From the IMG/VR virus record IMGVR_UViG_3300014947_000001: 64,000 nucleotides of DNA; one strand, given 5' to 3'. Position numbers and translations under genes: made by a program. Shown piece by piece: positions 977-61,082 of the stretch. Every line of letters starts with the position of its first letter. Position 1 is the stretch's first letter. The notes beneath the pieces are model-generated. The model was not told where the DNA came from, did no database searches, and was given only the letters and a program-made list of their open reading frames with translations. Source of the stretch: a virus.

Positions 977-1010
977 TTCCTGACGAGTTCTCTAAATTTT
1001 GAGCCTTATT
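977..1010 (+). promoter_or_regulatory. Family-1 motif (CTGACGAG-N13-TGAGCCTTATT), putative element-specific promoter
   Basis: ttcctgacgagttctctaaattttgagccttatt; ~30 nt upstream of the 1041 start. Confidence 0.5.
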
Positions 1011-1040
1011 GCATGTAGATGTGAAAAAGGAGAAAACGGT

Positions 1041-1322
1041 ATGAAGAAAATCGCAGTACTTGTAACAATTGTATCAACACTTTTGTTGGTTTTGGTTGGA
1101 TGTAATAAACAATCCGTAAACGCAAACCAGGAAGATCAGTTAGGACAATTTGAAGTTACCCAATATGAATCCGCTCATTATTTAGATATCAATAAGTATA
1201 TCGTGTTTGTGGATAAAGATACAAACGTTATGTATTTGTTTGTCGATGGCGGTGATAATGGTGGTGTGACTTATATGGTAAATCCGGATGGATCTCCAAA
1301 ATTATATACCGACTCGGAATAG
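1041..1322 (+). CDS. small lipoprotein
   Basis: RBS aaaggagaaaacggtATG; signal peptide with lipobox LVGC. Confidence 0.6.
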   Translation: MKKIAVLVTIVSTLLLVLVGCNKQSVNANQEDQLGQFEVTQYESAHYLDINKYIVFVDKDTNVMYLFVDGGDNGGVTYMVNPDGSPKLYTDSE

Positions 1323-1642
1323 GCAGGTTCTGTTGTTATAGGAAAGCGAAGACCGTTAATCGGATTATGTGAGGCTTCTAAATTATACGGAGCCGAAAAT
1401 GTAACGTTTAAGAAGTAGGGCTGGAATTCTCGGTTACTTGTATCCGAGATCACGAGAATTTATTTCGAGTGATTCAACGCCTGTGGAGTACAGATCACTC
1501 ATTACCATTCGTGATTTGGAGAGTTGAATGTTTACATTCAATCTCTACAGATGAAAGCCCGTTTTATTTCCATGTTTTGTATATTTACTCAGTATACATA
1601 AAATACATATTTATACAGTAGAAAGGAAGTGAATCATCCGTT

Positions 1643-2773
1643 ATGAATAAAGCGATCAAATACAGAATTTATCCGACAACTGAACAGAAGATCTTATTTG
1701 CTAAAACCTTTGGCTGTTGTCGGAAGGTCTATAACCTGATGCTTTCTGACAAGATCAGTTCCTACCAGGTATCAAAATCCTTTGGTAAGCAGACTCCTGC
1801 CATGTATAAGGACGAATTTCCTTATCTCAAGGAAGTGGACAGTCTTACGCTTGCCAATGCACAGATATACTTACAGACTGCAATGAAGAACCACTTTGAC
1901 AAGAAACGGAAGAAACGTACCGGATTTCCAAAATTCAAATCTGCAAAACGAAGCCGCAGGTCTTACACAACAAATAACCAGAACGGTACTGTTGCTCTTG
2001 TACAAAACGGGATCCGTCTTCCAAAGACTGGTATTGTAAAAGCGGTGATCCACAGATATCCGGAAGAAGATTGGATCATAAAATCTGCAACAGTCTCTCA
2101 GGACAGTGCGGGAAATTACTACGCTTCAGTACTCTTTGAGTTTGAAAAAGAGATCATTCCTGTCCCTGTCTCAGACAATGTGATCGGTCTGGACTATGCT
2201 TCAGACGGGTTATATAAAGACAACTATGGTAATACCGGTTCGGACCATAAGTTTTTCCGGGAAAGCCAGAAGAAATTAAGAAGAGAACAGAGACGTCTTT
2301 CCCGCATGACCGGGTCTAAAAAGGATGAACCAAAGTCAAACAACTATATGAAACAACAGATTAAGGTCAACAAGATCTACCGTCATGCAGCCAACCAGAG
2401 ACTCGACCATCTGCACAAATTATCTACCGGGATAGCCAACCGGTATGACATTGTCTGTGTGGAAGACCTGGACATGAAATCCATGTCAAATAAGAGTTTC
2501 GGAAACGGAAAAGCGACTATGGATAATGGTTACGGTATGTTTCTCAAAATGCTGGAGTACAAACTGAATGACAGAGGAAAGTATTTCATCAAGGTTGACA
2601 AGTGGTATCCAAGCAGCCAGATCTGCAGTCATTGCGGAAAGCGTCACCCGGAGATGAAGAACCTGCATAATCGTACCATGATCTGTGACTGTGGTTTCGA
2701 ATATGACCGTGACGTAAATGCAGCAATCAATATCAGGAATGAGGGTTTACGGATCTTAAAAGAAGCTGCGTAA
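1643..2773 (+). CDS. tnpB: TnpB (IS605 OrfB) RNA-guided endonuclease
   Basis: N-terminus MNKAIKYRIYPTTEQ; RuvC-I IGLDYASDG, RuvC-II VCVEDLD, zinc finger CSHCG...CDCG, RuvC-III DRDVNAAINI. Confidence 0.9.
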   Translation: MNKAIKYRIYPTTEQKILFAKTFGCCRKVYNLMLSDKISSYQVSKSFGKQTPAMYKDEFPYLKEVDSLTLANAQIYLQTAMKNHFDKKRKKRTGFPKFKSAKRSRRSYTTNNQNGTVALVQNGIRLPKTGIVKAVIHRYPEEDWIIKSATVSQDSAGNYYASVLFEFEKEIIPVPVSDNVIGLDYASDGLYKDNYGNTGSDHKFFRESQKKLRREQRRLSRMTGSKKDEPKSNNYMKQQIKVNKIYRHAANQRLDHLHKLSTGIANRYDIVCVEDLDMKSMSNKSFGNGKATMDNGYGMFLKMLEYKLNDRGKYFIKVDKWYPSSQICSHCGKRHPEMKNLHNRTMICDCGFEYDRDVNAAINIRNEGLRILKEAA

Positions 2774-2950
2774 ACGAGGATATTCTTATCCTTTTCCTCA
2801 TCCTTATCCTAAAATTGTAGGCTGGGAACCAGCCGAACATATACGCTTGTGGACATCATGTAAGACTTTGCAGTACATATTTCTACCGTATTGCAAAGCG
2901 GTGATGGATGAAGCAAGAAGCTCGGTTACTTGTAGCCGAGTAGTTCACAT
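2700..2950 (+). ncRNA. putative omega-RNA (reRNA) from the tnpB 3' end and right end
   Basis: By analogy with IS200/605 TnpB systems; right-end hairpin at 2925-2944; extent not determined. Confidence 0.3.
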
Positions 2951-3080
2951 GGGACGTATACCAAATGGGGAAGTACCAAAACAAAAGAGACACCGTATAG
3001 AGAAGTATTTGCAGCCGTATGTTTTGAAAGCGATATCGTCAATTCGTACGAGAACTAGAATTTAAGGAAGGTGAATTATT

Positions 3081-3284
3081 ATGTATAGATATTTTGTTTC
3101 ATTTACACATATGTCAGACAAACAAAAAGGTTGTGGCAACGTTGTTCTTGAATCCGACCACAAAATCAATGATTTTGACAACCTTGATGATGCCAACAAA
3201 TGGATTAGAGACATGCAGAAATGGATCGAAGATAACGGTAATGTTAAAAACGTTATCATCATGAACTTCCAATTATTGAATTAG
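3081..3284 (+). CDS. hypothetical small protein
   Basis: RBS aaggaaggtgaattattATG. Confidence 0.4.
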   Translation: MYRYFVSFTHMSDKQKGCGNVVLESDHKINDFDNLDDANKWIRDMQKWIEDNGNVKNVIIMNFQLLN

Positions 3285-3304
3285 GATAATTAAGGAGACG
3301 CTTT

Positions 3305-3481
3305 ATGAAAAACAAAGAGGAGCTGGAATCAGTATTAAATGATTTCGATGTGTTGTTGCAGAAAAACGTTGAAACTGAATTATATTGTGACCGTATGACG
3401 TTTGCAGAGCTTCGGGAGTGGCAGAAACAAATCGAAGAAATCAATCAGAGACTCCATAATATCGCAAACAAAATTGGGTAA
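3305..3481 (+). CDS. hypothetical small protein (58 aa, absent from ORF track)
   Basis: RBS taaggagacgctttATG; MKNKEELESVLNDF... Confidence 0.35.
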   Translation: MKNKEELESVLNDFDVLLQKNVETELYCDRMTFAELREWQKQIEEINQRLHNIANKIG

Positions 3482-4092: not shown

Positions 4093-4126
4093 TTCCTGAC
4101 GAGAAATTCATATTTTGAGCCTTATT
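4093..4126 (+). promoter_or_regulatory. Family-1 motif
   Basis: ttcctgacgagaaattcatattttgagccttatt; ~40 nt upstream of the 4163 start. Confidence 0.5.
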
Positions 4127-4982: not shown

Positions 4983-5016
4983 TTCCTGACGAGGTTTCTG
5001 AAAAGTGAGCCTTATT
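4983..5016 (+). promoter_or_regulatory. Family-1 motif
   Basis: ttcctgacgaggtttctgaaaagtgagccttatt; no ORF in the next 120 nt (possible small RNA or peptide). Confidence 0.45.
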
Positions 5017-5137
5017 AAAGATGTAACAAACAGAGGAAACAGAAAAATTAAAACAATTTCAAGATTCTTAAAACCTGATTCCAATTTCAGTTGTCTAATA
5101 ATTGTAACAAGAAAAAAAGAAACATAAATGCGTGAAT

Positions 5138-5170
5138 ATCTGACGAGGTTTCCAAAAAGTGAGCCTTATT
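5138..5170 (+). promoter_or_regulatory. Family-1 motif
   Basis: atctgacgaggtttccaaaaagtgagccttatt; ~50 nt upstream of the 5220 start. Confidence 0.5.
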
Positions 5171-6832: not shown

Positions 6833-6866
6833 TTCCTGACGAGGTTTCCGAAAAATGAGCCTTATT
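6833..6866 (+). promoter_or_regulatory. Family-1 motif
   Basis: ttcctgacgaggtttccgaaaaatgagccttatt. Confidence 0.5.
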
Positions 6867-7181: not shown

Positions 7182-7764
7182 TTTTGATACATTTTTGACA
7201 CGACTGCGTTGGGATTCAACGTACGAGAATTTTACAGATATGACGTCATTTCGGACTGACAGTATTGTTTATGAATTCAAAACGCCATTGTCGAAAAAAG
7301 ACCAAAATGCTTTTATTGATTTTCTTGGGGATTCAAAACATTTGAAGACAATTATGCCGGATGACTTCTGTAACTTCTTTTTGAATCATCGGATCGAGTT
7401 TGAAATTAAGTTTCAGTATGATTTCAATCTGCCTTTCAAACAGAATTATCGGTATCTTAAGACGATTCGTATTCTAAGAAAGTCACTAAAAAGAATGGAA
7501 CCAAACAGATGGCATACGATTTATGCAGTTAATCAGAATTATCCAACTAAGGACTGCTATTGTTGTGTGCAGACAGAAGAGGACTATAAGAATCGGCTCA
7601 TGTCGTTAGCATTCTTTCATGAAAAAGAGCATTGTTTTGTTCCTTTGGTCCCTTCAGAAGAGGACATGATAGACGATATTAAATATTGGCGAATGTATAA
7701 CAATCCAAAACCGTTAATATATTGCAGTTCAAAGCCGTTTTCTGACGAGGTTTCCGAGAAGTGA
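7174..7764 (+). CDS. hypothetical protein
   Basis: GTG start with RBS ggaggatttggatcGTG; overlaps the upstream gene. Confidence 0.4.
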   Translation: MSNFDTFLTRLRWDSTYENFTDMTSFRTDSIVYEFKTPLSKKDQNAFIDFLGDSKHLKTIMPDDFCNFFLNHRIEFEIKFQYDFNLPFKQNYRYLKTIRILRKSLKRMEPNRWHTIYAVNQNYPTKDCYCCVQTEEDYKNRLMSLAFFHEKEHCFVPLVPSEEDMIDDIKYWRMYNNPKPLIYCSSKPFSDEVSEK

Positions 7765-7772
7765 GCCTTATT
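7738..7772 (+). promoter_or_regulatory. Family-1 motif
   Basis: ttttctgacgaggtttccgagaagtgagccttatt; ~50 nt upstream of the 7820 start. Confidence 0.5.
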
Positions 7773-9147: not shown

Positions 9148-9179
9148 ACTGACGAGGTTTCCCAAAAGTGAGCCTTATT
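9148..9179 (+). promoter_or_regulatory. Family-1 motif
   Basis: actgacgaggtttcccaaaagtgagccttatt. Confidence 0.5.
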
Positions 9180-10259: not shown

Positions 10260-12062
10260 ATGAAATCATTGGCAAAGAAACTCAGTTTAATCTTTGTAGG
10301 CATCGTCTTAGTCACCTGTATCGTTCTTATCACGTTTGCAGGGTTAGCTTTTAATCGATTAGAGCGGACCTCAGAGGAAATTCTTTATGAGACAACATTG
10401 AATGGATATAAAACAGAGATCAAAAGTGAAGTCCAAGGAGCAGTATCCGTTGTTCGTGGGTTTTATGATTCCTACAGAAATGGAATCATAACAGAAGACA
10501 TCGCAAAGAGTGAAGCAAAAGAAGCGTTACGCAATATGCGGTACGGTGATGATAATTCCGGTTATTTTTGGATTGATGATACAAACTATAACCTCGTTAT
10601 GCATCCAATCCTTTCAGAACAGGAAGGAACGAACCGGAAAGATCTTGAGGACAAAAATGGAGTTAAGATCATTCAGGAAATCATGAAAGTTGCAGATAAT
10701 GGTGGATATAATGAGTTTTATTTCACAAAATCAGACGGCAAAACAGTAGCCCCAAAAGTAGCGTATTCTTTATCGTTTCCAGAATGGAACTGGGTGATCA
10801 CCACTGGCGTATATACAGATGACATTCAATCAATATTGTCTTCTTCCGCAGAGATAACGCGTACAAAAGCAATAAGCCGTAACAGTATCATATTTATGAT
10901 AGCGATTGGTGTTGTTCTTTATATATTAATGTTCTTCTTTTGTTTGTTTATCTGCAAAAAGCTCGTCTTGGTTATTAATCAGGTAAAGGAAAATTTAAAC
11001 AGTATCGCAGACGGTGACCTAACCGGACGGATTGACGGTAAGATCCTAAACAGAAAAGATGAACTCGGAAATATTGTAGTTCACACAAATAAAGCAGTCG
11101 AATCGTTCTGCAATAGCATTGCAACATCAAAACAGACTGCCATTACCGTGAACGAAAACAGTGCTGAAATATCCGGACTCGCAAACAGTGCTCTCGAAGC
11201 GACTGCTCAGGTTGCGGAAGCGATCAGTAATATAGCCGGAGATGCGACAACACAAGCAGGTGTCGTAAGTGATGTTGTGAAAAATATTGATACAATGAAC
11301 TGTAACGTCGAAGAAGTAAGTAATTCCGTTGACGACATCAGTCATTATGCGTGCGAATTAAATGAAGCCAGCGAAGACATGAAAGATAAAATGGATGCAA
11401 TGTCTAAAGGCAGCATGCAGATGTCAACACAGATTGAAAATATTTACAATCAGATTATGAAGACAACAGAGTCTATCAACAAAATGCAAGATGTATTAAA
11501 TGTTATCCAGGATATCGCTTCCCAGACAAACTTATTGAGTTTGAACGCAAGTATTGAAGCAGCAAGAGCCGGTGACAGCGGTCGTGGATTCTCTGTAGTA
11601 GCTTCTAATATTCGGGAATTATCAGAAAATACATCAAAAGAATTAAGTAATATTCGAGATATTATTGGAGAGCTCACTTCAAGTTTCGAAGAATGTAACG
11701 CTTCTATTGATACCGTCGTTGGTACAAATAAACAAAATGCTGAATACACAGGTCTGGTGATCAATTCATTTGATACTGTATTCGATGATATTAAGAATAC
11801 GAATGAAAATGTTTCTCATGTAACCACACTTACAAAACAGATTAGTGACATGATGAACCAGATCGCAGAGGGTATTGAAACCGTACAGCGAGGTGCTGAA
11901 AGTACAGCAGCTGCAACCGAAGAAGTTACGGCTTCCAGTGAAGAATTAAACGCTCTGATGCATAATATTACAGAAAACTGCAGGATCATGACAACCGAAG
12001 CCGAAAGTATGGTTGTGGATCTTAGTAAATTCAAGCTGGAAAAAGAAACAAAAACTGAATAA
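10260..12062 (+). CDS. methyl-accepting chemotaxis protein (Cache-like sensor, HAMP)
   Basis: Two transmembrane segments; Cache-like periplasmic domain; conserved signalling motif [32 protein letters not shown]. Confidence 0.9.
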
Positions 12063-12155: not shown

Positions 12156-12189
12156 TTCCTGACGAGGTTTCCGAAAAGTGAGCCTGTTA
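12156..12189 (+). promoter_or_regulatory. Family-1 motif
   Basis: ttcctgacgaggtttccgaaaagtgagcctgtta. Confidence 0.5.
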
Positions 12190-17378: not shown

Positions 17379-17423
17379 AAACCATCTATCGTACTCGGTA
17401 GGTGGTTTTCTTTATGTTCGTTT
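17379..17423 (+). terminator. rho-independent terminator (G.U-wobble stem, strand-specific)
   Basis: aaaccatctatcg-tact-cggtaggtggttt followed by tctttatgttcgttt. Confidence 0.6.
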
Positions 17424-18036: not shown

Positions 18037-18045
18037 AACAAAGCA

Positions 18046-18088
18046 AACCATCTATCGCCTCCGGTAGGTGGTTTCTTTATGTTCGTTT
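18046..18088 (+). terminator. rho-independent terminator (duplicate of 17379)
   Basis: aaaccatctatcgcctccggtaggtggttt followed by ctttatgttcgttt. Confidence 0.6.
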
Positions 18089-18738: not shown

Positions 18739-18778
18739 CAAACCATCTATCACATCGGTAGGTGGTTTCTTTATTTTC
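18739..18778 (+). terminator. rho-independent terminator (third copy)
   Basis: aaaccatctatcacatcggtaggtggttt followed by ctttattttcg. Confidence 0.55.
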
Positions 18779-21200: not shown

Positions 21201-21233
21201 TTCTGACGAGAAACCAATTTCCTGAGCCTTATT
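21201..21233 (+). promoter_or_regulatory. Family-1 motif
   Basis: ttctgacgagaaaccaatttcctgagccttatt. Confidence 0.5.
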
Positions 21234-21265: not shown

Positions 21266-21625
21266 ATGACACAGGAAGAACGTAATACAATTGCAGAAAA
21301 CATTTACACTCAAGAACTAAAGGAATTCATACAGTATATTATTTTATCAATTTTGCTATTCGTGGTCTATTCTGTACTGGCTATAATGAGCGCCTTTATT
21401 GCTATCCATAACCCAGACATATTTAAACCGTGGTTTTTTGCGATACCTGTAACCTGTGGTCCGGTTTATGTTCTTATAAAGCCAATCAATGATTGCAAGA
21501 TCGAAATACAGTACATAAAACTACTTCGCCAGACCATCAACACCAACGATTACGAAATCAAAGAAGTAACCGGAGAATATCAGCTCTTTGAAAAGGAAAC
21601 CGGTATTCAGATTACAATTCCGTGA
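21266..21625 (+). CDS. small membrane protein, tandem paralog 1
   Basis: RBS aacaaggaggaacacattATG; two transmembrane segments; its stop TGA lies inside the next Family-1 motif. Confidence 0.5.
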   Translation: MTQEERNTIAENIYTQELKEFIQYIILSILLFVVYSVLAIMSAFIAIHNPDIFKPWFFAIPVTCGPVYVLIKPINDCKIEIQYIKLLRQTINTNDYEIKEVTGEYQLFEKETGIQITIP

Positions 21626-21651
21626 CGAGTTTCCTGAGTTGTGAGCTTGTT
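21618..21651 (+). promoter_or_regulatory. Family-1 motif (variant: GTGACGAG...TGAGCTTGTT)
   Basis: tccgtgacgagtttcctgagttgtgagcttgtt. Confidence 0.4.
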
Positions 21652-21683
21652 CAATAGTAAACAAAGAGAAAGGAGTTCTTTGA

Positions 21684-26502: not shown

Positions 26503-26536
26503 TTCCTGACGAGTTTTCCAAAAAGTGAGCCTTGTA
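26503..26536 (+). promoter_or_regulatory. Family-1 motif
   Basis: ttcctgacgagttttccaaaaagtgagccttgta. Confidence 0.45.
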
Positions 26537-26600
26537 ATATTCGTAAACAACAATAGCCGTCATTCATCAGAGAAAACTCGTTTTAGTTTGCAAGCATGCG

Positions 26601-26613
26601 TACCATATTTAAT
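26601..26613 (+). promoter_or_regulatory. Family-2 motif
   Basis: gcgtaccatatttaatacg. Confidence 0.35.
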
Positions 26614-26635
26614 ACGTAAGCAAAATGATGAATGG

Positions 26636-41956: not shown

Positions 41957-41989
41957 ATCTGACGAGTTTTCCATACTTTGAGCCTTATC
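41957..41989 (+). promoter_or_regulatory. Family-1 motif
   Basis: atctgacgagttttccatactttgagccttatc; overlaps the integrase 5' region on the opposite strand. Confidence 0.45.
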
Positions 41990-52044: not shown

Positions 52045-52556
52045 CTTAATACCTTTAACAAGCCATGTGCGGAGACCCGCGCCTTCAGTCGTGGGAGGAG
52101 CACTCATGGCTATGTCGTTCCCTTTCTTTGTTCTGTCAAATTGTTACTCAAACACACTCCGAAGCTTAGCATTATAGAACATTAGCAGTTCTATAATCTT
52201 GGCTTACTAACTGATCTGCACGCCAGTAGGTGGCAGGTTTCAGTACAGGAGGACATCACGAGAGTTTATCTCGAGTGAACTGTACTCCGAAGGAGTGGTA
52301 TCACTTAAGGTTTGAAATACCAGGACATCTGGATCTTCTCTGAAGTTTCCCAGTGTTTTTTTTTATGGTATTCAAAGCTGTCTGATGTGGTCTTGAAATA
52401 CAGACTCAATCCCTCAATAAATTGAGCGATGTAGTCTCTCCGTTGCAGAAACGTTCAAGACATCCCTACATGGTAGGTTTCACAGGACTCTTCGTCCTGC
52501 AGTCTTACGGTCTCAGTTGGAACCGCAAAGAGTTATTTCTAAACTCTTTAATACCA

Positions 52557-52590
52557 ATAAGGCTCACATTTTGGAAACCTCGTCAGGAAA
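52557..52590 (-). promoter_or_regulatory. Family-1 motif (minus strand)
   Basis: Reverse complement ttcctgacgaggtttccaaaatgtgagccttatt; no ORF for ~450 nt downstream. Confidence 0.45.
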
Positions 52591-52756
52591 TTACAAAATA
52601 TTTCTAATTATTTTGTACATGAACGGAGTTTCCTCTGCACACCATAAGGTGGCAGCTTCCACTCCTTACTCCTTTGTGATGGGTAGTTGACAATGTGATA
52701 GTTCCTTTCTTTATAATTGCGGATTATTCGGAACGTTACTTATTGTTCCTTATTTA

Positions 52757-52768
52757 CTAAATATGTAC
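52757..52768 (-). promoter_or_regulatory. Family-2 motif (minus strand)
   Basis: Plus-strand ctaaatatgtac = gtacatatttag on the minus strand. Confidence 0.3.
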
Positions 52769-52773
52769 AAGTT

Positions 52774-53265
52774 TCAAGCAAAGAAAAACAGACCCTCATA
52801 AGAAGATCTGTTTTCTGTTTTACGGCTTAGTTTGTTCCTGTGCTGCCGAATCCCTCGATTTTCACCAACTAACTGTTCCTTTTCATGGAATATAATTCGT
52901 GGCTGATTCTCAATAATGCGGAACTGACAGATACGGTCATTTACATGGATTTCGGTATCGCGTGTTGCGTATACTGGCATCATCCATTCATCATCGTTTC
53001 CACAATAAGAGTTATCGATGATTCCGATACTATTTGTCTGGATAAGTCCCCATTTCTTGAATGTTGAGCTACGCGGTGCAACATATGCTTCGAAACCGTA
53101 AGGGATTTTCATGGCAATTCCAAGTGGGATCAATGCAAAGTCGCCTTTCTTCAGTTTCATTTCTTTGGCGGCTCTAAGGTCGATCCAATCTGACTTGTCA
53201 TCAATATAAGTCAATTTTTCAATATCCGGATTCAAATACCGGACGTCAATGTCTGCATGTGTCAT
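52774..53265 (-). CDS. dut: dUTP diphosphatase (motif V out of frame)
   Basis: Motifs I DWIDLRA, II PRSS, III GIIDNSYCGND and IV RICQFRI in frame; motif V GFGSTG is encoded in another frame after a C3/G3 tract (~52840). Confidence 0.75.
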   Translation of the reverse strand: MTHADIDVRYLNPDIEKLTYIDDKSDWIDLRAAKEMKLKKGDFALIPLGIAMKIPYGFEAYVAPRSSTFKKWGLIQTNSIGIIDNSYCGNDDEWMMPVYATRDTEIHVNDRICQFRIIENQPRIIFHEKEQLVGENRGIRQHRNKLSRKTENRSSYEGLFFFA

Positions 53266-53383
53266 TGCTTTTGTTCTCCTTTAGTTTGTTTTTGTTGTTT
53301 CGTTTACTACATTGCCGATCTTCACAGTCTTCGCAAAACTGGTAAGTAACATTGTGATCAACGATTGGACAGTAACGACTCAT
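53246..53383 (-). CDS. tiny Cys-rich protein (46 aa)
   Basis: RBS gaaaaggagagtaaaccttATG; C..V...C..C..C. Confidence 0.3.
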   Translation of the reverse strand: MSRYCPIVDHNVTYQFCEDCEDRQCSKRNNKNKLKENKSNDTCRH

Positions 53384-53423
53384 AAGGTTTACTCTCCTTT
53401 TCTTGTATGTTATTTTGTTACAT

Positions 53424-53438
53424 CTTAAATATGTAATG
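53424..53438 (-). promoter_or_regulatory. Family-2 motif (minus strand)
   Basis: Plus-strand cttaaatatgtaatg. Confidence 0.35.
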
Positions 53439-53546
53439 AATGGGCTTAACCTAGAAGCCATGATGCTTGAACTACTAACGTTTAAGTGTATTACAGCTTC
53501 GTTTCCAAAAACAAAGACAGGTTATTACTCCTGCCTCTGTTTCATT

Positions 53547-54227
53547 TTAAAATCGACCTAATCTGACCGATACATCACAAATACTATCTTCGAGCTTTTC
53601 TTTAATTCGCTTTGCGCATTCCTCTTTGTCTGTATCAGATATTTTTGTTGGATCAGGATATTCTTTGTTTAATTCCCTGCAAACGTACTCTGCTTTTTGT
53701 CCGAGTTTGTATCCTTTTTCTTTGTATCGTTTGTAATCAGGAGCAATATCAATTGAATTTGAATCAAATACGGTCCAGGTATTATAACCTTTGATTAACA
53801 AAGCAACACAGAAAACAAATACAAGAATGATCGTCACGTTGATGTTAATGAACAACATCGGCGATAAAAACAGGGTGATTATTGGAATTAAGATCCAGGA
53901 AGTAATGATTCTGAATTTTTCCTGTTTATTCAAATATTGTAATAAATCCTCTGTCATTCTTGTACAACAATGTTCGAATCGATTTTTGTCTTGATCACAA
54001 TAAATGAAAATATTATACTGCTTGAAATCGTTAGGGACTGAAACAAATCTTTTAGCTACCAGTTTCGGCAAGAAATATTCGATTGCGATCGCTGCTACAA
54101 TAATCATAACGGGACCGACACATAATCCGAGTAACTTTAAGATCAATCTAAGGGTCTCGAAATACCCCATGCCGTCTGCGTGTTGCAACTGGTTAATAAT
54201 TTTTACAAGTTCGTCTGTTTGAAACAT
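53547..54227 (-). CDS. MFxTEEL-family membrane protein, paralog 1 of 4
   Basis: N-terminus MFQTDELVKIINQLQHA; three to four transmembrane segments. Confidence 0.6.
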   Translation of the reverse strand: MFQTDELVKIINQLQHADGMGYFETLRLILKLLGLCVGPVMIIVAAIAIEYFLPKLVAKRFVSVPNDFKQYNIFIYCDQDKNRFEHCCTRMTEDLLQYLNKQEKFRIITSWILIPIITLFLSPMLFININVTIILVFVFCVALLIKGYNTWTVFDSNSIDIAPDYKRYKEKGYKLGQKAEYVCRELNKEYPDPTKISDTDKEECAKRIKEKLEDSICDVSVRLGRF

Positions 54228-54267
54228 AATACTTTTCTCCTTTTCTTTTGATGGTTTATTTGTTACG

Positions 54268-54280
54268 TCTTAAATATGTG
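54268..54280 (-). promoter_or_regulatory. Family-2 motif (minus strand)
   Basis: Plus-strand cttaaatatgtgc = gcacatatttaag on the minus strand, ~40 nt upstream of the 54227 start. Confidence 0.4.
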
Positions 54281-54458
54281 CCCGATATTAATGGAGAAAC
54301 CGGTGTTCTATATGATAAGTTGGGCACAAAAATACCGGATGCTAACACACTCATACGGAAACAAAATATCAGGGAACAAAAAGTATTGCTAAACTGATTA
54401 ATCGATTTACTTTCTTTTTGTTCCCATAAATATTCGTTTCCGATAATTCTATCGTTTA

Positions 54459-55157
54459 TCAGTGATCACATAGATGAATCACACAGATGACAGCTTTGCA
54501 ATACCGATCATTTACGGCTGCATTTATAATTTGTTCTATCTCATATTTATCCATATGCTTCAATTTCTTTGTATCTATAGTTTTAAATGCTTCCTGGATT
54601 TTCTCACAAAACTGATTTCTGATTTCTGTTTTGTTTACAGAGTTTTCCTTTGCTATATCGCTCCAATCATAGCAACCAAAACTGTCGTTACAGAAAAACA
54701 ATGTAAGTACAAGTCCTACGATTATACAAAATGTAAATATACCAAAAAGAACTTTTGTATGGTCATTAAAAAGAAATGGACTTAATAACAATAATACAAT
54801 TACAGAGAAGCCACAGGTTATTTTATAACGCAAGAATCCCCGTTTACAAAGTAGTTTTTCATAATCACGACTTTCTTCCCAATCAGACGGCTTCAAAAAA
54901 TCTTTGTCTTTCTTTCGTTTAAGAACGAAGTGATAATCGTATAACTTCATTGTGTCTGACACTGGCGTTAATTTGTATGAAATCCATTTTGGTCCCAATA
55001 CTAAAATCACTATTAAACTGATAACAAACAGTGTGGGACCTGCACATAGTCCAATTAATTTAAAAATCAGCAGTAGTGTATCGAAATACCCGAGTCCGCT
55101 TCCTTGTGCATGCTGCAATTGATCAATTATTTGTTGTAATTCTTCTGTATGAAACAT
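54459..55157 (-). CDS. MFxTEEL-family membrane protein, paralog 2
   Basis: MFHTEELQQIIDQLQHA; transmembrane segments. Confidence 0.6.
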   Translation of the reverse strand: MFHTEELQQIIDQLQHAQGSGLGYFDTLLLIFKLIGLCAGPTLFVISLIVILVLGPKWISYKLTPVSDTMKLYDYHFVLKRKKDKDFLKPSDWEESRDYEKLLCKRGFLRYKITCGFSVIVLLLLSPFLFNDHTKVLFGIFTFCIIVGLVLTLFFCNDSFGCYDWSDIAKENSVNKTEIRNQFCEKIQEAFKTIDTKKLKHMDKYEIEQIINAAVNDRYCKAVICVIHLCDH

Positions 55158-55196
55158 ATATAATCTCCTTTCGTTTCCTCTGACTTAACTATTCAT

Positions 55197-55230
55197 AATA
55201 AGGCTCAAAATACCGAAAACTCGTCAGGAA
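55197..55230 (-). promoter_or_regulatory. Family-1 motif (minus strand)
   Basis: Plus-strand aataaggctcaaaataccgaaaactcgtcaggaa. Confidence 0.5.
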
Positions 55231-55320
55231 ACAAAATATCAGGGAACAAAAAGTTGGTAAATTAATTAATTAATTGGTTTACTTTCTTTTTGTTCCCATG
55301 AATATCCGTTTCCGAAACAG

Positions 55321-56016
55321 TCACTCTCTGCTAATAAGGATCTTATAATAAGGATCGTTTACCCTTATGCCTAAAATTCGAGCGATTTCCTTTTTACTCA
55401 TATCTTTCAACTGATTTGCATCAATCTCTTCAAAAGCTTTTATCACTTTTTCAGCAAACTGATCTTTTGTCTCTGATAATTTATCTTCCTTTGCGATATC
55501 TTCCCAGCCCTTGAGTTCTGATTCATAATCATAAACTACATATACATATAGAAGAACACTACCCATAACGATCATAAATGCATAAGCAGGAAACCTCATT
55601 ATTTCACTAAAAAAGAAAGGACTTATCAGTAGTGATACAATTACTGAAAAAACGCATGTTATCTTATAACGCAGGAAACCTCGTTTACAAAGTAACTTTA
55701 GGTAATCGCTGGTATATTTAATTGTGTTGAACTGTAGAGGTGAATCTCTCTGCAAACGATATTTCCCATTTTTACACTTAAGAATAAAATAGCAATTATA
55801 CCGTTTCATGTTATCCGGAGTTGGTGTTAATTTGTATGAAATCCATTTTGGAATCCATATTAAAATTAATATCAAACAAATAACAAACAGGATTGGTTTT
55901 GCACATAATGCAATCAGTTTCAGGATTAAAAGCAGTGTGTCAAAATAACCGATTCCGTCTACTTGTGCATGTTGTAACTGATCAATGATTTTTTGCAATT
56001 CTTCGGTGTGAAACAT
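55321..56016 (-). CDS. MFxTEEL-family membrane protein, paralog 3
   Basis: MFHTEELQKIIDQLQHA. Confidence 0.6.
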   Translation of the reverse strand: MFHTEELQKIIDQLQHAQVDGIGYFDTLLLILKLIALCAKPILFVICLILILIWIPKWISYKLTPTPDNMKRYNCYFILKCKNGKYRLQRDSPLQFNTIKYTSDYLKLLCKRGFLRYKITCVFSVIVSLLISPFFFSEIMRFPAYAFMIVMGSVLLYVYVVYDYESELKGWEDIAKEDKLSETKDQFAEKVIKAFEEIDANQLKDMSKKEIARILGIRVNDPYYKILISRE

Positions 56017-56055
56017 AGATAATCTCCTTTCATTTCCTCTGATTTAACTATTCAT

Positions 56056-56089
56056 AATAAGGCTCAAAATACTGAAAACTCGTCAGGAA
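56056..56089 (-). promoter_or_regulatory. Family-1 motif (minus strand)
   Basis: Plus-strand aataaggctcaaaatactgaaaactcgtcaggaa. Confidence 0.5.
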
Positions 56090-56190
56090 ACAATAAATTA
56101 GGGAGCAAAAAGTCGGTAAACTAATTAATTGGTTTACTCAACTCTTGCTCCCTAAACATCTGTTTCCGAAATAATCAGTAACTGAATTCG

Positions 56191-56919
56191 TTAGATTTCA
56201 GGAAACGGAAAACGAATAGAACAACAGTCAGATACTATATGCTCATCCATATATTTTTCAAACTCAATTGGTGTCATTTCTACTTTATCCTTTTTCAGTG
56301 AGAATACCTCTTTGTACAGTTGTTCTTTGATATTGGATTCAATCTCATTGATACTTGATAGTTTTTGAATATTTCCATATATTGCCCAATGGTTTTCGTG
56401 GCAGAGTGATCGAAAATTAATATCATCAATTTCAGTTGTTAGGTAATAACCATCTTTAGTCTTATTTCCTACAATCCAATATAAAAAGATACAGACAACT
56501 GTAATGTAGGTTAACATAGTACCGAAGCTTACGAATAAAAATGGACTTAACAAAAAACACGCAATTAAGGATAAAACGGTTGTTATCTGATATCTTAGAT
56601 GTCCGCGTTTTTCAAGGATTGCTTTATATTTCTTCGTAAACCTTATTCCTTCAAAATGAAGATCATTTAGATTTTTATATCCCCAGCTGCACAAAAAATA
56701 ATATGGCTTCATGTCTTTTTCTAGCGGTATCAGAATTTGCGGTAAATATTTTGGAACAAAATACAATACTGCAAAGACTGCAAACACAAATAAAATCGGT
56801 CCCGCACACAGTCCGATTAATTTCGTAATCAACAGCAAGGTATCAAAATAACCAAGACTGGCTCCATGAGAACTCTGTAATTGATCAATGACTTGTTTTA
56901 ATTCTTCTGTATGAAACAT
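56191..56919 (-). CDS. MFxTEEL-family membrane protein, paralog 4
   Basis: MFHTEELKQVIDQLQSS. Confidence 0.6.
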   Translation of the reverse strand: MFHTEELKQVIDQLQSSHGASLGYFDTLLLITKLIGLCAGPILFVFAVFAVLYFVPKYLPQILIPLEKDMKPYYFLCSWGYKNLNDLHFEGIRFTKKYKAILEKRGHLRYQITTVLSLIACFLLSPFLFVSFGTMLTYITVVCIFLYWIVGNKTKDGYYLTTEIDDINFRSLCHENHWAIYGNIQKLSSINEIESNIKEQLYKEVFSLKKDKVEMTPIEFEKYMDEHIVSDCCSIRFPFPEI

Positions 56920-56951
56920 ATATGTATTCTCCCTTCGTTTTTACTTGTTAA

Positions 56952-56985
56952 CAATAAGGCTCAATATATCGAAAACTCGTCAGAA
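56952..56985 (-). promoter_or_regulatory. Family-1 motif (minus strand)
   Basis: Plus-strand caataaggctcaatatatcgaaaactcgtcagaaaa. Confidence 0.5.
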
Positions 56986-57092
56986 AAATACAAGAAAAAG
57001 GAATGGAAATGTATTCCGTTTCAGATGTTTTTCTTGTCTTCATCATAATCATAATCCTCTCCCTTATATCCTTTTCCTGCTTTTCGATCTTC

Positions 57093-57776
57093 TTATTTTT
57101 CTACTGTCAGAACTAACTGAACCGTACCAATCTCATCTGAATCACTAACATGTACCGTAAGATTATAGGTTTTTGTGTTCGAATCATTACAGAGATCATA
57201 TGCTGGCCACGATGTTTGGAATCCAACATCATAGATTGATTCTACAATACATTCGTCTCCTTCTGTTACTGTAAAGCTTAATGACCTTGTAATATCTCGG
57301 TATTCGTATTCTTTTGCCAGATCGCTAAAATCAATATACTTATGGTCTTTGTTTACAGTTGCAATCCACTTTTTGGGCAACCCATTCTCTTGCATTCCCT
57401 CAAAGCTGCTATATTCGGATACTACATTGGAATGCGATTCGATGGTTGCTGTTTGTTCTGCTTGCGTAATATCCGTATCTGAATTATCGTGATATAATAA
57501 TGAAAAACTAGTAACGAGTATAGCACAAACAACAACAACAACGACTAGTGCATAAGCTTCAACAATTATGAATGTGTTCGGCTTGTATTTCTTACTTTTC
57601 TTAGAATTGTCTGCTACTTTTGTTGACTTTGTCCCGTTTTTCTGTTTCATAAGCTGTTTCATGTAATCATAATGATATGCGCTGTCTTCCGAATCTTTAG
57701 AATCCGACGTCTTTTTCGACTCTGTTTTTGGTTTGTCTTCTGCCTGTTTCGGTTCCTTAAATTTGTATAATACCAT
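57093..57776 (-). CDS. single-pass membrane protein downstream of the SPFH gene
   Basis: RBS taaggagatccATATG; Lys/Ser/Asp-rich N-terminus, transmembrane segment, beta-rich C-terminal domain. Confidence 0.5.
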   Translation of the reverse strand: MVLYKFKEPKQAEDKPKTESKKTSDSKDSEDSAYHYDYMKQLMKQKNGTKSTKVADNSKKSKKYKPNTFIIVEAYALVVVVVVCAILVTSFSLLYHDNSDTDITQAEQTATIESHSNVVSEYSSFEGMQENGLPKKWIATVNKDHKYIDFSDLAKEYEYRDITRSLSFTVTEGDECIVESIYDVGFQTSWPAYDLCNDSNTKTYNLTVHVSDSDEIGTVQLVLTVEK

Positions 57777-57839
57777 ATGGATCTCCTTATAGAAAACAAA
57801 GGCTGCTACACAACGCAACAGCCTCTGTATTGATTTTGT

Positions 57840-58796
57840 TTACTGGCTTAACTGGAACAATGTATTGATCTTGTCGCTTAGCATTGTCTCTGGCAGTTTT
57901 CCATCCCAGCCTTTGACATAGTAATACTGAACGAGTTCTGGATGCGCATTTAACTGATCTCCGACTGCTGACATGATTGCAGCATCTTTCTTTCCCTGAT
58001 ACTCAGCAGAATCAGCCTGGATCTGAGCGACCTCTGCGTCTGCTTTTGCGGCTACGATTGCAGAGTCAGCTTCTGCCTGTGCTGCCGTTACTTTACGTTT
58101 TGCTTCTGCTTCTGCTTCCAGGTTTAATCTTTCCTGCTCTGTCTTTGCTGTTAATTTGTTCTGGACTGCTGTTACTTTCGCTTCTGCTGCGCTTGTGAAT
58201 TCGTCACTGAAATCGATATTTTCGATTGCGGTTGCAGTTAATCTAATGTTATAACTTGCAAGATCATCAATCAAATCGGTTTGAATTAAAGCAGCAACCT
58301 TATTACGGTCTTCAATCAATTCATTTGCAGTGTATTTTGCAAATCCGGCTTTCACTGCTTCCTGTACACGTGGAACAATAACTGTGTCATAGTAGTTAGA
58401 ACCGATTGTACGATAAATATCCTGTGCATTCTGCTGGCTAATCTGATAGTTGACGGTGTATGTAAGTGTTACTTCCTGAATATCTTTTGAGAAGCAGGTC
58501 ATATCTACTTGTGCTTTTTGTACACGGTTATCCATTTTTACAACCTTTTGCCAAGGCTCTACAAAAGCTATACCTGCATCTAATGTCTGCGATTCGACTC
58601 GTCCGAATGTAGTTAAAATTCCGGTATATCCAGTCGGTACGGTTCGGACACATCCGAAACCACAGAGTATAAGTCCGAATACAGCAAGAAACTGTCTCTT
58701 TCTAAAATGCATCTCTACTGCATCGTCTGTAAACTCAATACCCAAAACGAAGAATAATACTATAGTTGCAATAATGCCTAGAACGAATAAAAACAT
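57840..58796 (-). CDS. SPFH/band-7 (stomatin/prohibitin/HflKC-like) membrane protein
   Basis: N-terminal transmembrane segment; SPFH core; Ala/Glu-rich coiled-coil (EAEAEAKRKVTAAQAEADSAIVAAKADAEVAQ). Confidence 0.85.
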   Translation of the reverse strand: MFLFVLGIIATIVLFFVLGIEFTDDAVEMHFRKRQFLAVFGLILCGFGCVRTVPTGYTGILTTFGRVESQTLDAGIAFVEPWQKVVKMDNRVQKAQVDMTCFSKDIQEVTLTYTVNYQISQQNAQDIYRTIGSNYYDTVIVPRVQEAVKAGFAKYTANELIEDRNKVAALIQTDLIDDLASYNIRLTATAIENIDFSDEFTSAAEAKVTAVQNKLTAKTEQERLNLEAEAEAKRKVTAAQAEADSAIVAAKADAEVAQIQADSAEYQGKKDAAIMSAVGDQLNAHPELVQYYYVKGWDGKLPETMLSDKINTLFQLSQ

Positions 58797-58842
58797 ATTA
58801 AATCCTCCTTTGTTTTTTTGTTATGTTTTCGTTTCTAAACCT

Positions 58843-58876
58843 GATAAGGCTCACTTTTTGAAAACCTCGTCAGGAA
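58843..58876 (-). promoter_or_regulatory. Family-1 motif (minus strand)
   Basis: Plus-strand gataaggctcactttttgaaaacctcgtcaggaa. Confidence 0.5.
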
Positions 58877-58915
58877 ATTGCAAAAAAAATCAAATTTGTT
58901 TCGTAATACGGTTCG

Positions 58916-58927
58916 AGCACATATTTA
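58916..58927 (+). promoter_or_regulatory. Family-2 motif
   Basis: cgagcacatatttagaataacc, ~40 nt upstream of the 58966 start; divergent from the 58843 Family-1 motif. Confidence 0.4.
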
Positions 58928-58965
58928 GAATAACCACTAATCGCATATTAAAGGAGGAATTGAAT

Positions 58966-59454
58966 ATGAGAGAAATACTTAAAACAGGAACATTGCAGGA
59001 AGTAATCGATACATTAGAGTCCGAAATTGAGGAATACGATATGAATTCTATCAAAGCGGACTTAACTAGTAACGATACATTTCTGCTTTGTGATCCAGTA
59101 GTCTTTATTCCTGATGTGAATCTTTTTGCCGTTTGCATGGAATACTGTCTTGGAGATGCCGACGGAATGGCTGACTGGTGTGGAACCTTTATATTCCGCA
59201 TCAAAAACGTATCCGGGAACCCTACTATTACAGATTATGGTTACGAATCCGACGATATCATGACAACATTGTATAATTACACACATGTTGACACAGATAA
59301 GTTGGCGTCCATGTCTGCAGGTCTTTTTACCGGAGACCTTGATCAGATCGCAGCTCTTTTGGAAAACGCAATCCTGGGAATCGAACTTCCAGATCCAGAT
59401 GCCGTCTCCGAAGTAACGACTGCTTTTGAAACGGCGCCCGCAATAGCATTCTAA
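58966..59454 (+). CDS. hypothetical protein
   Basis: RBS aaaggaggaattgaatATG. Confidence 0.5.
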   Translation: MREILKTGTLQEVIDTLESEIEEYDMNSIKADLTSNDTFLLCDPVVFIPDVNLFAVCMEYCLGDADGMADWCGTFIFRIKNVSGNPTITDYGYESDDIMTTLYNYTHVDTDKLASMSAGLFTGDLDQIAALLENAILGIELPDPDAVSEVTTAFETAPAIAF

Positions 59455-59462
59455 ACACAAAA

Positions 59463-59500
59463 GAAACCACTTACCAATTACGGTAGGTGGCTTCTTGTTT
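59463..59500 (+). terminator. rho-independent terminator (G.U-wobble stem)
   Basis: aaaccacttacc-aatta-cggtaggtggctt followed by cttgtttt. Confidence 0.5.
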
Positions 59501-59509
59501 TATGATTTT

Positions 59510-60043
59510 TCAAGATGTCTTATCGAATTGATAGCAATCGTATTCTATAATACATCCGATCTCATTGGTTTTGCATAGAATTGAAAGTCCACGTTCATAA
59601 CGTGCATCGCATCCATCTCTGTGTACGCAATGCCTGCAGTTAATAAGACATGCTTCCAGAAATTCGTCCGGAAATGTTTCGAGATCCTTCCATTCAGACT
59701 TCGACGCATATTGTTTTACTAATTTGTAACCTTTTGCGAGTTCACAATGTACGATATCCTGGTTCATCTTCGGAGTAACACAATACAGATTTCCTTCTCC
59801 GTCATCCCAGATTGACATCTTTTTGAAATGATACTTGAAGAACCGATGAATTTTGTTTACAAGGAAGCAAATGATACTTAGAACCCAACCAACCGGACCG
59901 ACAGCAAGAAGTCCTGTAACTGTGTCATTATCAAAAGCGATGTACAAAATAGTGGATACCAATGAACACAGTAGCCAAATAATAAGAACAAGTTTTATAG
60001 ATACCATAATATAATCTCCTTTTCTCTTATGACTTATTATCAT
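59510..60043 (-). CDS. membrane protein with Cys-rich C-terminal domain
   Basis: N-terminal transmembrane segments; CRHCVHRDGC...C. Confidence 0.45.
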   Translation of the reverse strand: MIISHKRKGDYIMVSIKLVLIIWLLCSLVSTILYIAFDNDTVTGLLAVGPVGWVLSIICFLVNKIHRFFKYHFKKMSIWDDGEGNLYCVTPKMNQDIVHCELAKGYKLVKQYASKSEWKDLETFPDEFLEACLINCRHCVHRDGCDARYERGLSILCKTNEIGCIIEYDCYQFDKTS

Positions 60044-60067
60044 AAATATGGAATTCCTAGTATTGCA

Positions 60068-60463
60068 TTAATTATCAGAAACATTCACATGCAATTTACT
60101 TTCATCCAGATACAAAAATCCCCATTCGTATCGTATTGTTTCAATATGTGTTGGTTTCTCGTTATCGACGACAGTTGGTAACCCACGTGTTGAAAACGAT
60201 TCTCCGGACTCATAATCAATATGTGTTATCTCGGATGTTATCGGTTTTCGAAAGGTTGTAAACAAAACAGCGATAACTGATAGAGAAATCAAAGATCCGA
60301 TACTCCAAAGACCGACCAAAACGGTTAACATTTTTGTTAGTTTTTGTTTTAATGACAAATCATCATGTTTACTATTCATTTTTCGAACTAAATAACTGAT
60401 TCTCGGAATAAACAAAATGAATATTACAGCTAAAACGAGAACCATAAATGCGATTACGTTCAT
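60068..60463 (-). CDS. single-pass membrane protein, tandem paralog
   Basis: ...THIETIRYEWGFLYLDESKLHVNVSDN; paralog of 60570-61004. Confidence 0.5.
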   Translation of the reverse strand: MNVIAFMVLVLAVIFILFIPRISYLVRKMNSKHDDLSLKQKLTKMLTVLVGLWSIGSLISLSVIAVLFTTFRKPITSEITHIDYESGESFSTRGLPTVVDNEKPTHIETIRYEWGFLYLDESKLHVNVSDN

Positions 60464-60489
60464 GGATTTCCTCCGTATTCCTATTATTT

Positions 60490-60571
60490 CGGAACCGCTC
60501 TTTCGGAACCTATTGACTTAGAAACTATTATGTTTCCTAAAACAATCGGTTCTAAAATATTCGGTTCCGCT
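60490..60571. repeat. compound palindromic GGTTCCG/CGGAACC element (copy B)
   Basis: tcggaaccg-N6-cggaacc ...36 nt... cggttct-N7-tcggttccgc; same architecture as 29925-30004. Confidence 0.55.
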
Positions 60572-61004
60572 ACTGTTGGTCCAACATTTCATCAGAAAGA
60601 TTTACGTGCAGTAATGTTTCCTTTTCATACAAAAAGCCCCACTTGTACGTAATCGTCTCAAAATGTGTTGAATTTTCTTCGTCTACGATTGCTGTCACGT
60701 TTTTCGGGATCTCTTCTCCGGACTCATATGATACCGGAATTGTCTCTACTGATACGGGCTGCCGGAATCTAGGGTATAATCCCATAAGAAAAATACTTGG
60801 ACATAATGCCAAGACTACATATACAGCAATTAAGGTTTCTGTTTTAAGTCCGGGAGCTACATTGAGCCCTGGTTCTACCGTGTCTCCATTAGAATCCATT
60901 GCTTCGATTGCTGCTATATCATCAACTGTCGATTTATGGATAATCGGAATGAAGATTACGGACACAGTTATTATCATGATCAACACAAATAACATAATAT
61001 GCAT
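60570..61004 (-). CDS. single-pass membrane protein, tandem paralog
   Basis: ...THFETITYKWGFLYEKETLLHVNLSDE. Confidence 0.5.
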   Translation of the reverse strand: MHIMLFVLIMIITVSVIFIPIIHKSTVDDIAAIEAMDSNGDTVEPGLNVAPGLKTETLIAVYVVLALCPSIFLMGLYPRFRQPVSVETIPVSYESGEEIPKNVTAIVDEENSTHFETITYKWGFLYEKETLLHVNLSDEMLDQQ

Positions 61005-61048
61005 GATTTTAATATCCTTTCTTTAATGACTGTTAGTTGTTATCTATT

Positions 61049-61082
61049 ACAAGGCTCATGAACTCGTAAACTCGTCAGGAAA
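61049..61082 (-). promoter_or_regulatory. Family-1 motif (minus strand)
   Basis: Plus-strand acaaggctcatgaactcgtaaactcgtcaggaa. Confidence 0.45.

Follow-up and report, generated by a model that had tools for sequence, protein, structure and literature searches.

The repeated motif and its placement

The stretch of DNA described here, IMG/VR virus record IMGVR_UViG_3300014947_000001 (64,000 nucleotides, hereafter the window), is part of what is probably a large, phage/plasmid-like element of more than 150 kb. The window carries 18 copies of a 31-base bipartite motif, CTGACGAG-N12-TGAGCCTTATT, where approximately none would be expected by chance. Twelve copies lie on the plus strand (980-41959) and six on the minus strand (52586-61078). 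This motif, the genes that it precedes, and the sigma factor that may read it are the subject of this report. The copies and their surroundings are as follows.

980-1010 (+), exact copy; terminator-like hairpin upstream, start of a 93-aa lipoprotein-like open reading frame (ORF) 30 nt downstream
4096-4126 (+), exact copy; ATG at 4163, 36 nt on
4986-5016 (+), exact copy, first of a tandem pair; next copy 154 bp on, with no ORF between
5140-5170 (+), exact copy; 515-aa protein with its ATG at 5220, 49 nt on
6836-6866 (+), exact copy; terminator before, ATG 30 nt on
7742-7772 (+), exact copy; ATG at 7820, 47 nt on
9149-9179 (+), exact copy; terminator before, next ORF (9265) ~85 nt downstream
12159-12189 (+), copy with 3 mismatches (TGAGCCTGTTA); at the head of a long plus-strand gene block that includes ClpP
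21203-21233 (+), exact boxes with a divergent centre; terminator before, ATG at 21266, 32 nt on
21622-21652 (+), weak copy (GTGACGAG..TGAGCTTGTTC, 19.7 bits); ahead of the gene at 21684
26506-26536 (+), copy with 2 mismatches; leader of ~250 nt, then an ORF at 26785
41959-41989 (+), copy with 1 mismatch; divergent from the integrase gene, ATG 42 nt on
52556-52586 (-), exact copy; 442-nt strongly structured leader (z = -4.25), then a gene ending at 52107
55197-55227 (-), exact copy; terminator before, ATG of a 232-aa paralogue 39 nt on
56056-56086 (-), exact copy; terminator before, ATG of a 231-aa paralogue 39 nt on
56953-56983 (-), exact copy; terminator before, ATG of a 242-aa paralogue 33 nt on
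58843-58873 (-), copy with 1 mismatch; ATG of an SPFH/Band-7 protein 46 nt on
61048-61078 (-), copy with 2 mismatches; ATG at 61004, 43 nt on

The exact pattern with a flexible gap, CTGACGAG-N{10,16}-TGAGCCTTATT, matches the window 12 times, as compared to 0 matches in 100 dinucleotide-preserving shuffles. When up to three mismatches are allowed, 17 copies are found and 0.02 are expected. A position weight matrix (PWM) was made from these 17 copies, which it scores at 35 to 58 bits. A scan of the window with this matrix adds the 18th, weaker copy at 21622, and the rest of the window never exceeds 8 bits. The count given in a preliminary description of this DNA, made from its letters and ORFs (18 copies, 12 plus and six minus), is thus borne out by both the pattern matches and the matrix. 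That description also saw a freely variable centre of 12 to 14 nt, which does not hold. The gap between the boxes is exactly 12 nt in all 18 copies, and the centre is partly conserved, with the consensus gTTTCCaAAAAg. The extended consensus reads tTTcCTGACGAG-gTTTCCaAAAAg-TGAGCCTTATT, and conservation ends directly after TTATT. Past this point, the sole conserved feature is a pyrimidine-purine step at positions 37 and 38 (Y37-R38, conserved in 89% and 94% of 113 non-redundant copies, respectively). The motif is strictly directional and non-palindromic.

All 18 copies lie between genes and, as had been described, each is oriented like the gene that follows. Their distance from the start codon had been put at ~35-70 nt. 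In 14 of the 18 copies, the end of the motif lies 27 to 49 nt ahead of a start codon that is preceded by a Shine-Dalgarno (SD) sequence, and the four exceptions (copies 4986, 9149, 26506, and 52586) have a long leader or no nearby ORF. The copies therefore stand where a core promoter would stand, upstream of genes, co-oriented with them, and at core-promoter distance. For about half of them, a strong hairpin with a T-rich tail is located within 75 nt upstream, which gives the order terminator, motif, short leader, gene. A similar placement was found outside of the window. Among 117 non-redundant copies from related contigs, an SD-preceded start codon is present 21 to 120 nt downstream in 87 cases in the sense direction vs eight in the antisense direction.

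Individual copies have features of their own. The two tandem copies at 4986-5170 (+) are 154 bp apart, and the first one, which has no ORF, could be the promoter of a short RNA or a relic. At 54459-56919 (-) are three tandem paralogues of 232, 231, and 242 aa, which start with MFHTEEL and have no family match, and every one of them comes with a motif copy and a terminator upstream. The 442 nt that follow copy 52586(-) (52108-52549, -) have a minimum free energy of -128.6 kcal/mol, as compared to -104.2 kcal/mol in shuffles (z = -4.25), and no Rfam match. This stretch is a candidate for a motif-driven, structured non-coding RNA or a long regulatory leader, based on the folding calculation. The 242-nt leader after copy 26506 (26543-26784, +) is moderately structured (z = -2.5). 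Just upstream of that copy, at 26469, is the sequence AATCATTCGTCAACA, which recurs at 32660, upstream of a sigma factor operon that is discussed below. We considered 'GGAAACGAATCATT' as a second motif and rejected it; its matches are mostly ribosome-binding-site contexts, and AATCATTCGTCAACA occurs only twice.

The motif does not behave as an RNA element or a recombination site

A recurring intergenic sequence could also specify a structured 5'-untranslated RNA or ribozyme, or mark a recombination or cassette site. The resemblance of CUGACGAG / CTGACGAG to the hammerhead core box CUGANGA, and the mosaic gene content between copies across related contigs, would be in keeping with such roles. 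However, RNAalifold found 0 pairs in an alignment of the 18 copies, and no Rfam family matched the motif, whether gathering thresholds or a cut-off of E below 0.5 was applied, such that the motif has neither the conserved structure nor the family match of a structured RNA or ribozyme. With the start site proposed below, most of the motif would stay untranscribed. In addition, the junctions of the insertions and deletions that distinguish the window from a related locus, L025 (16361/29809), do not fall at motif copies. We consider an RNA element or recombination site extremely unlikely, and the likeness of CTGACGAG to the hammerhead box appears coincidental. The preliminary description had called the motif a promoter-type signal and not a structured RNA, a view with which the lack of pairing, the lack of an Rfam match, and the directional, bipartite architecture at core-promoter distance all agree. 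No tRNAs were found in the window by ARAGORN.

The motif is confined to one family of elements

The exact 31-nt pattern, in which 19 bases are specified, was not found in any of 185,579 genomes, each from a different bacterial or archaeal species. A literature search for the motif string returned unrelated primer matches only. In IMG/VR, by comparison, the exact pattern was found at 19 loci and a relaxed pattern at 120 or more. After rescoring with the PWM, copies remained on at least 37 IMG/VR contigs of 25 to 120 kb, nearly all from metagenome 3300045988, where they are clustered, with up to 16 copies on the sampled parts of a single contig. As a control, TGAGCC was replaced by TGGWCC, which keeps the information content equal; this pattern gave 20 single matches on unrelated IMG/VR contigs. 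The search of host genomes and metagenomes that the preliminary description had proposed thus points to a promoter class that is confined to a family of related contigs. This restriction fits a dedicated, element-encoded sigma factor.

For many of the motif loci, the only DNA in common with the window by blastn is the 34-bp motif. Those loci do have a backbone region in common with the closest relatives of the window, and it contains a divergent motif pair 103 bp apart. On contig 180302, the backbone locus has copies at 74947(-), 75050(+), and 75190(+), that is, the 103 bp divergent pair and the third copy that is usually found 140 bp further. This layout is repeated in at least 10 other contigs and is kept where no other DNA matches the window.

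Contig 180302 (115 kb) begins at approximately 33.7 kb of the window and is 95-99.8% identical to it in the overlap. ENA scaffolds with the same genes reach 196 kb and 332 kb. These long relatives indicate that the element extends well past both ends of the window. The suggestion that the motif could be used to delimit the element did not survive; the copies reach both ends of the window and continue beyond.

An RpoD-like sigma factor gene is preceded by the motif

At one related locus, L012, a motif copy lies directly before a gene for a 342-aa RpoD-like sigma factor (phrog_351, 2.6e-63), which scores far under the equivalog cut-offs of the NCBIfam RpoD models. Five IMG/VR contigs encode this sigma at 94-100% identity, among them 180302 and 185101, which are the closest relatives of the window (92-99.8% identical over most shared parts). 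On these two contigs, the gene is located ~8-9 kb past the right end of the window, on the minus strand, like the block of minus-strand motif copies, and beside a divergent parAB. Each of the five contigs has a motif copy of 44-50 bits located 110 nt upstream of the sigma ATG.

The sigma belongs to a small clade, P0121-P0125, whose members are 50-98% identical. Beyond the clade, identity falls abruptly to ~40%, as with ordinary bacterial RpoD. Homologues of 50-60% identity (P0122-P0125) are found at five loci, each of which has a motif variant at the same place and further copies before other genes. In 10 of 10 loci (50-100% identity), the sigma ATG therefore has the motif or a variant of it ~110 nt upstream. 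Elements of this family thus carry a sigma gene of their own, and a promoter-like sequence of the class that marks the other genes stands before it. The contigs that share the backbone and have no sigma gene in their sampled parts all begin within 31 kb of the divergent motif pair on its left side, where the gene would be expected, and truncation thus explains its absence.

Based on these comparisons of sequence, our current reading, which we put at somewhat better than even (a probability of roughly 0.55), is that the motif is a dedicated, probably autoregulated promoter class that is read by the element's RpoD-like sigma. The preliminary description had implied a dedicated, element-encoded or alternative sigma, and that part is upheld by an element-specific motif and this candidate. 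The factor that it named is a different one and is treated in the following section.

A further conserved sequence was noted at all of the sigma loci (L027-L036). Downstream of the motif and ~50 nt before the sigma start codon, they have a CATATTTAG(G) box with TTGnnn 16-17 bp upstream of it. By analogy with the three promoters of sigN, this box may be a second promoter, read by a host sigma, or an operator.

The membrane-tethered ECF sigma is a poor candidate

The window contains a gene for a sigma of the extracytoplasmic function (ECF) type, which was the earlier candidate.

32968-34929 (+), ECF-type sigma fused to a transmembrane segment and an extracellular domain; rejected as reader of the motif

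This gene is the only sigma-like gene inside the window, and the geometry of the motif is compatible with the 16-17-bp spacing of ECF promoters. As with ECF (group 4) promoters, the motif is bipartite with two highly conserved boxes. ECF sigmas are usually autoregulated, and their promoters typically have AAC in the -35 box and CGT in the -10 box. However, the motif consensus, cTGACGAG..TGAGCCTTAT, has neither an AAC -35 box nor a CGT -10 box. No motif copy lies upstream of this operon (32817/32968), which contains the only ECF gene present, either in the window or in six further loci that contain the upstream region. The gene and the motif also do not co-occur, given that a close ECF homologue was found on only one motif-bearing IMG/VR contig, whereas the motif is present on at least 37. 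The ECF sigma domain recurs with high conservation in proteins encoded on Lachnospiraceae chromosomes, and still none of the 185,579 genomes contains the motif. In the 20-kb neighbourhoods of two chromosomal ECF homologues, the best PWM score was 9 bits, which is the level of shuffled sequence. Following these upstream, distribution, and chromosomal-locus checks, we set aside the proposal that the motif is the promoter of the tethered ECF sigma, which we regard as a very unlikely reader.

The ECF locus itself (32817-34929, +) consists of the sigma with its 400-aa extracellular domain and, before it, a 52-aa ORF that overlaps its start. It adjoins a divergent gene for an anthrax-lethal-factor-like metalloprotease (31954-32574, -). 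In relatives of the locus, the next gene encodes a leucine-rich repeat (LRR) protein of 900-1100 aa. The family is widespread in Lachnospiraceae, where one conserved sigma domain is combined with swapped C-terminal domains (LRR_5, SH3, Big_2).

Proposed promoter architecture and the -10 region

Taken as a promoter, the motif resembles the extended -10 promoters of sigma-A/sigma-70 (TTGACA-N14-TGn-TATAAT) in several respects. The sequence cTGACg matches the -35 box TTGACA at four of six positions. The fixed distance between the two boxes allows a 17-bp spacer to the -10 hexamer GCCTTA, with an invariant TG at -15/-14 (the extended -10 position), or an 18-bp spacer to CCTTAT, with an invariant T30 at -7, and both registers fall within the 16-19-bp range. 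A transcription start at the Y37-R38 step, 7-8 nt after the box, is plausible from its conservation, and relative to this step the motif spans about -37 to -8. In contrast to sigma-A/sigma-70 promoters, the -10 hexamer is GCCTTA or CCTTAT and not TATAAT, the spacer is partly conserved, and the motif is absent from bacterial chromosomes. The earlier view that the motif departs from sigma-70 promoters in both spacing and sequence is therefore correct for the non-canonical -10 box and incorrect for the -35 box, the spacer, and the extended -10 TG.

The protein side of this comparison is largely canonical. The sigma clade keeps the sigma-70 residues (Escherichia coli numbering) that contact the -35 box (R584, E585, R588, and Q589) and the TG (H455 and E458), as well as the -12 readers Q437 and T440 and the melting residues Y430, W433, and W434. 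At DNA-proximal positions that are otherwise invariant, the clade as a whole differs only by R448N. P0125 alone has in addition T440I/R441K in sigma region 2.4, and four of the six motif copies in its locus read TGGTCC or TGGACC and not TGAGCC, a change that falls at -13/-12 in the 17-bp register. T440I is said, after Siegele et al. 1989, to be a classical sigma-70 allele that alters -12 specificity. The TGGWCC variant occurs in IMG/VR as chance-level singletons only and yields no independent replicate of the sigma/motif covariation. As a change in a single lineage, this covariation is weak evidence for recognition of the motif by the RpoD-like sigma.

Several observations weigh against that sigma as the reader. 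The sigma gene lies outside of the window, and the search for close relatives found it on only five of the at least 37 motif-bearing IMG/VR contigs. For the large contigs 184041, 182473, and 178437, which have neither the backbone pair nor the sigma gene in their sampled parts, truncation does not explain the absence. The head of the sigma that reads the -10 region is essentially canonical, with the pocket residues for -11A and -7T kept, and no register of 16-19 bp places a TAnnnT (the -11A/-7T pair) in the motif. At positions 28-33, TAnnnT is present in only 38% of the copies and would need a 21-bp spacer; at positions 22-27, where a housekeeping sigma-A would be expected to read it, TAnnnT occurs in 0 copies. 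It is missing altogether between positions 24 and 45 in 43 of 113 copies, such that a canonical -10 element, inside or after the motif, is not consistently present and was discarded as an explanation. Lastly, partial conservation of the spacer (TTTCC..AAAA) would not usually be expected of a promoter that is purely of the sigma-70 type. The combination of a canonical reading head with the absence of TAnnnT implies an unusual mode of recognition, a cofactor, or another protein that reads the downstream box.

A more specific form of the hypothesis is that an RpoD-type sigma with canonical -35, TG, and -10 residues drives an element-wide regulon from a -10 region (GAGCCTTAT) that lacks -11A and -7T, and does so as the single, autoregulated master switch for cargo genes in a very large, abundant phage-plasmid of gut Lachnospiraceae. 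This version is tentative, and we consider it doubtful as a whole. If true, either -10 recognition or promoter melting would proceed in a way not described so far, or an unknown cofactor would take part.

Proposed mechanism and competing explanations

If the RpoD-like sigma is the reader, the host core RNA polymerase would carry the 342-aa protein, and the resulting holoenzyme would bind the motif, with cTGACGAG in the role of the -35 box and TGAGCCTTaT in that of an extended -10 region of non-canonical sequence. Transcription would start at the pyrimidine-purine step ~7-8 nt after TTATT and would produce leaders of 20-40 nt with little beyond the ribosome-binding site. The sigma gene, being under the same promoter, would be subject to positive autoregulation. 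The sigma could then turn on separate cargo and accessory units together, among them lipoproteins, membrane proteins, the methyl-accepting chemotaxis protein (MCP), BspA-type LRR proteins, ClpP, dUTPase, and the SPFH protein. The motif-free genes for replication, partition, and integrase, and the ECF operon, would presumably be read by a host sigma.

In a competing explanation, the motif combines a weak host sigma-A promoter with the binding site of an element-encoded regulator, either an activator or a global repressor with its operator. TGAcGAG and TGAGCC would then be the half-sites of a tandem dimer, and the RpoD-like sigma gene would be merely another target. The two boxes have TGA-G in common and are ~19-20 bp apart, or roughly two helical turns, and a protein that contacts the whole 30 bp would explain the partly conserved spacer. 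In addition, the 38% of copies mentioned above have a TATTAT-like hexamer at positions 28-33, and the canonical head of the RpoD-like sigma should prefer TAnnnT. Global regulators with many operators per plasmid are known, such as KorA and KorB of IncP-1. However, the site is strictly directional and non-palindromic, its span of -37 to -8 is the footprint of a core promoter and not the position of an activator, and 43 of 113 copies have no TAnnnT from position 24 to 45. A candidate for the regulator was also not apparent, given that scans of the window against Pfam and PHROG yielded just the ECF sigma and a single helix-turn-helix, replication-initiator-like protein. We judge a regulator of this kind to be unlikely.

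Alternatively, the motif could be read by other machinery encoded in the unsampled part of the element, such as a second, divergent sigma, a sigma-appropriation pair, or a phage RNA polymerase. This would account for the misfit between the -10 box and the canonical head of the RpoD-like sigma, and there is room for it, in that only about half of the best-covered related contigs was sampled and most ORFs have no family assignment. Among the ~80 proteins scanned, however, no RNA-polymerase-like protein or second sigma was detected. Promoters of single-subunit RNA polymerases are contiguous blocks of ~20 bp and not bipartite with a relative of the -35 box TTGACA, and a motif copy always precedes the RpoD-like sigma gene. 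Such machinery therefore seems quite improbable to us.

Relation to known systems

The closest functional analogue of the proposed RpoD-like sigma system is SigN (ZpdN) of the Bacillus subtilis plasmid pBS32. SigN has an autoregulatory promoter of its own class, and its regulon is confined to the plasmid, with no members on the chromosome (PMC6751061). Its consensus, TTTACGTTT..TAGATA, was derived with MEME, is located before many plasmid operons, and is backed by Rend-seq and in vitro transcription data (PMC6751061). On this proposal, both systems would have a sigma carried on the element, one bipartite promoter before many operons, a promoter of the same class at the sigma gene, which gives positive feedback, and confinement of the promoter to the element. 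Like the element described here, pBS32 is large and has phage-like content. The systems differ in that SigN is weakly ECF-like, whereas the element's sigma is RpoD-like, with regions 1.2-4.2 and ~40% identity to primary sigmas. The SigN consensus is unrelated to the motif, and the SigN regulon was established experimentally, whereas that of the element is predicted from its sequence.

A second parallel is offered by gp28 and gp33/34, the middle/late sigmas of the Bacillus phage SPO1, in which sigmas of a mobile element replace or supplement that of the host and redirect the host core polymerase to repeated -35/-10 consensus sequences (AGGAGA-N17-TTTNTTT and CGTTAGA-N18-GATATT). The SPO1 sigmas are small and highly divergent and their consensus sequences are unrelated to the motif, and the element has no virion genes in the parts examined. 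What is new here is the sigma clade and the motif consensus; the proposed type of mechanism, a dedicated sigma carried by an element, is already known.

The motif is a signature by which a family of large elements, extrachromosomal or phage-like, can be searched for, and it provides a model of their regulation that can be tested. These elements appear to be common in human-gut metagenomes, where the sigma falls in protein clusters with hundreds of members. If the RpoD-like sigma reads the motif, one autoregulated switch would act on surface and cargo genes (MCP, BspA-type LRR proteins, lipoproteins, and proteases), and the promoter-sigma pair could be an orthogonal expression module for Lachnospiraceae. 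The pairing of a canonical sigma head with a -10 box that is not TATAAT poses a specific mechanistic question.

Gene content of the element

Protein scans of the window identified the ECF-type sigma with its transmembrane segment, an MCP, four BspA-type LRR proteins, ClpP, an anthrax-lethal-factor-like protease, a Bro-N protein, a PIF1-like helicase, a tyrosine integrase, and TnpB. Proteins similar to single-stranded DNA-binding protein and to DnaD/replication initiators, a dUTPase, an SPFH protein, and a ClpX-like AAA protein were also found. Related contigs add ParA/ParB, RecJ, a DNA polymerase, NrdD, a thymidylate synthase (ThyA), and a CCA-adding enzyme. Most ORFs of the window and the related loci have no family assignment, and ~40 large ORFs from both, scanned against PHROGs, include no virion protein. 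INPHARED phages and PLSDB plasmids contain no near-identical DNA, and tblastn with the RpoD-like sigma gave no match above ~38% identity. The host is probably a gut Lachnospiraceae, in which the closest chromosomal relatives of the cargo genes are found, a hint that rests on cargo similarity only.

A complete chemoreceptor of the sCache-MCP type is carried as cargo at 10260-12062 (+). Its nearest relatives (53-59%) are in Lachnospiraceae metagenome-assembled genomes, Clostridiales genomosp. BVAB1, and Acetatifactor, and by this similarity the gene suggests a motile Lachnospiraceae host.

At 1643-2919 (+) is a TnpB (OrfB_IS605 with a Cas12f1-like TNB domain), followed at 2846-2919 by a sub-threshold RAGATH-18-like match (29.7 bits; gathering score 44.9), which is possibly the guide (omega) RNA of the TnpB. 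At the related loci L021-L023 and L026, a degenerate motif copy (ACGACGAG..TGAGCCTTGTTA) is followed by the insertion of another TnpB, which is distinct from this one and has 526 aa.

Three near-identical terminator hairpins (AAACCATCTATCG..CGGTAGGTGGTTT) follow three consecutive plus-strand genes, at 17379-17408, 18045-18074, and 18740-18768. Two of the three genes (17485 and 18148) are small BspA-LRR paralogues, and the repeated hairpins suggest a recent tandem duplication of gene-plus-terminator units. A longer array is present at locus L192 (contig 180302, 101.7-109.9 kb), where at least five consecutive genes encode phrog_14105 paralogues of 328-457 aa; another member of this family is located beside motif copies at locus L008.

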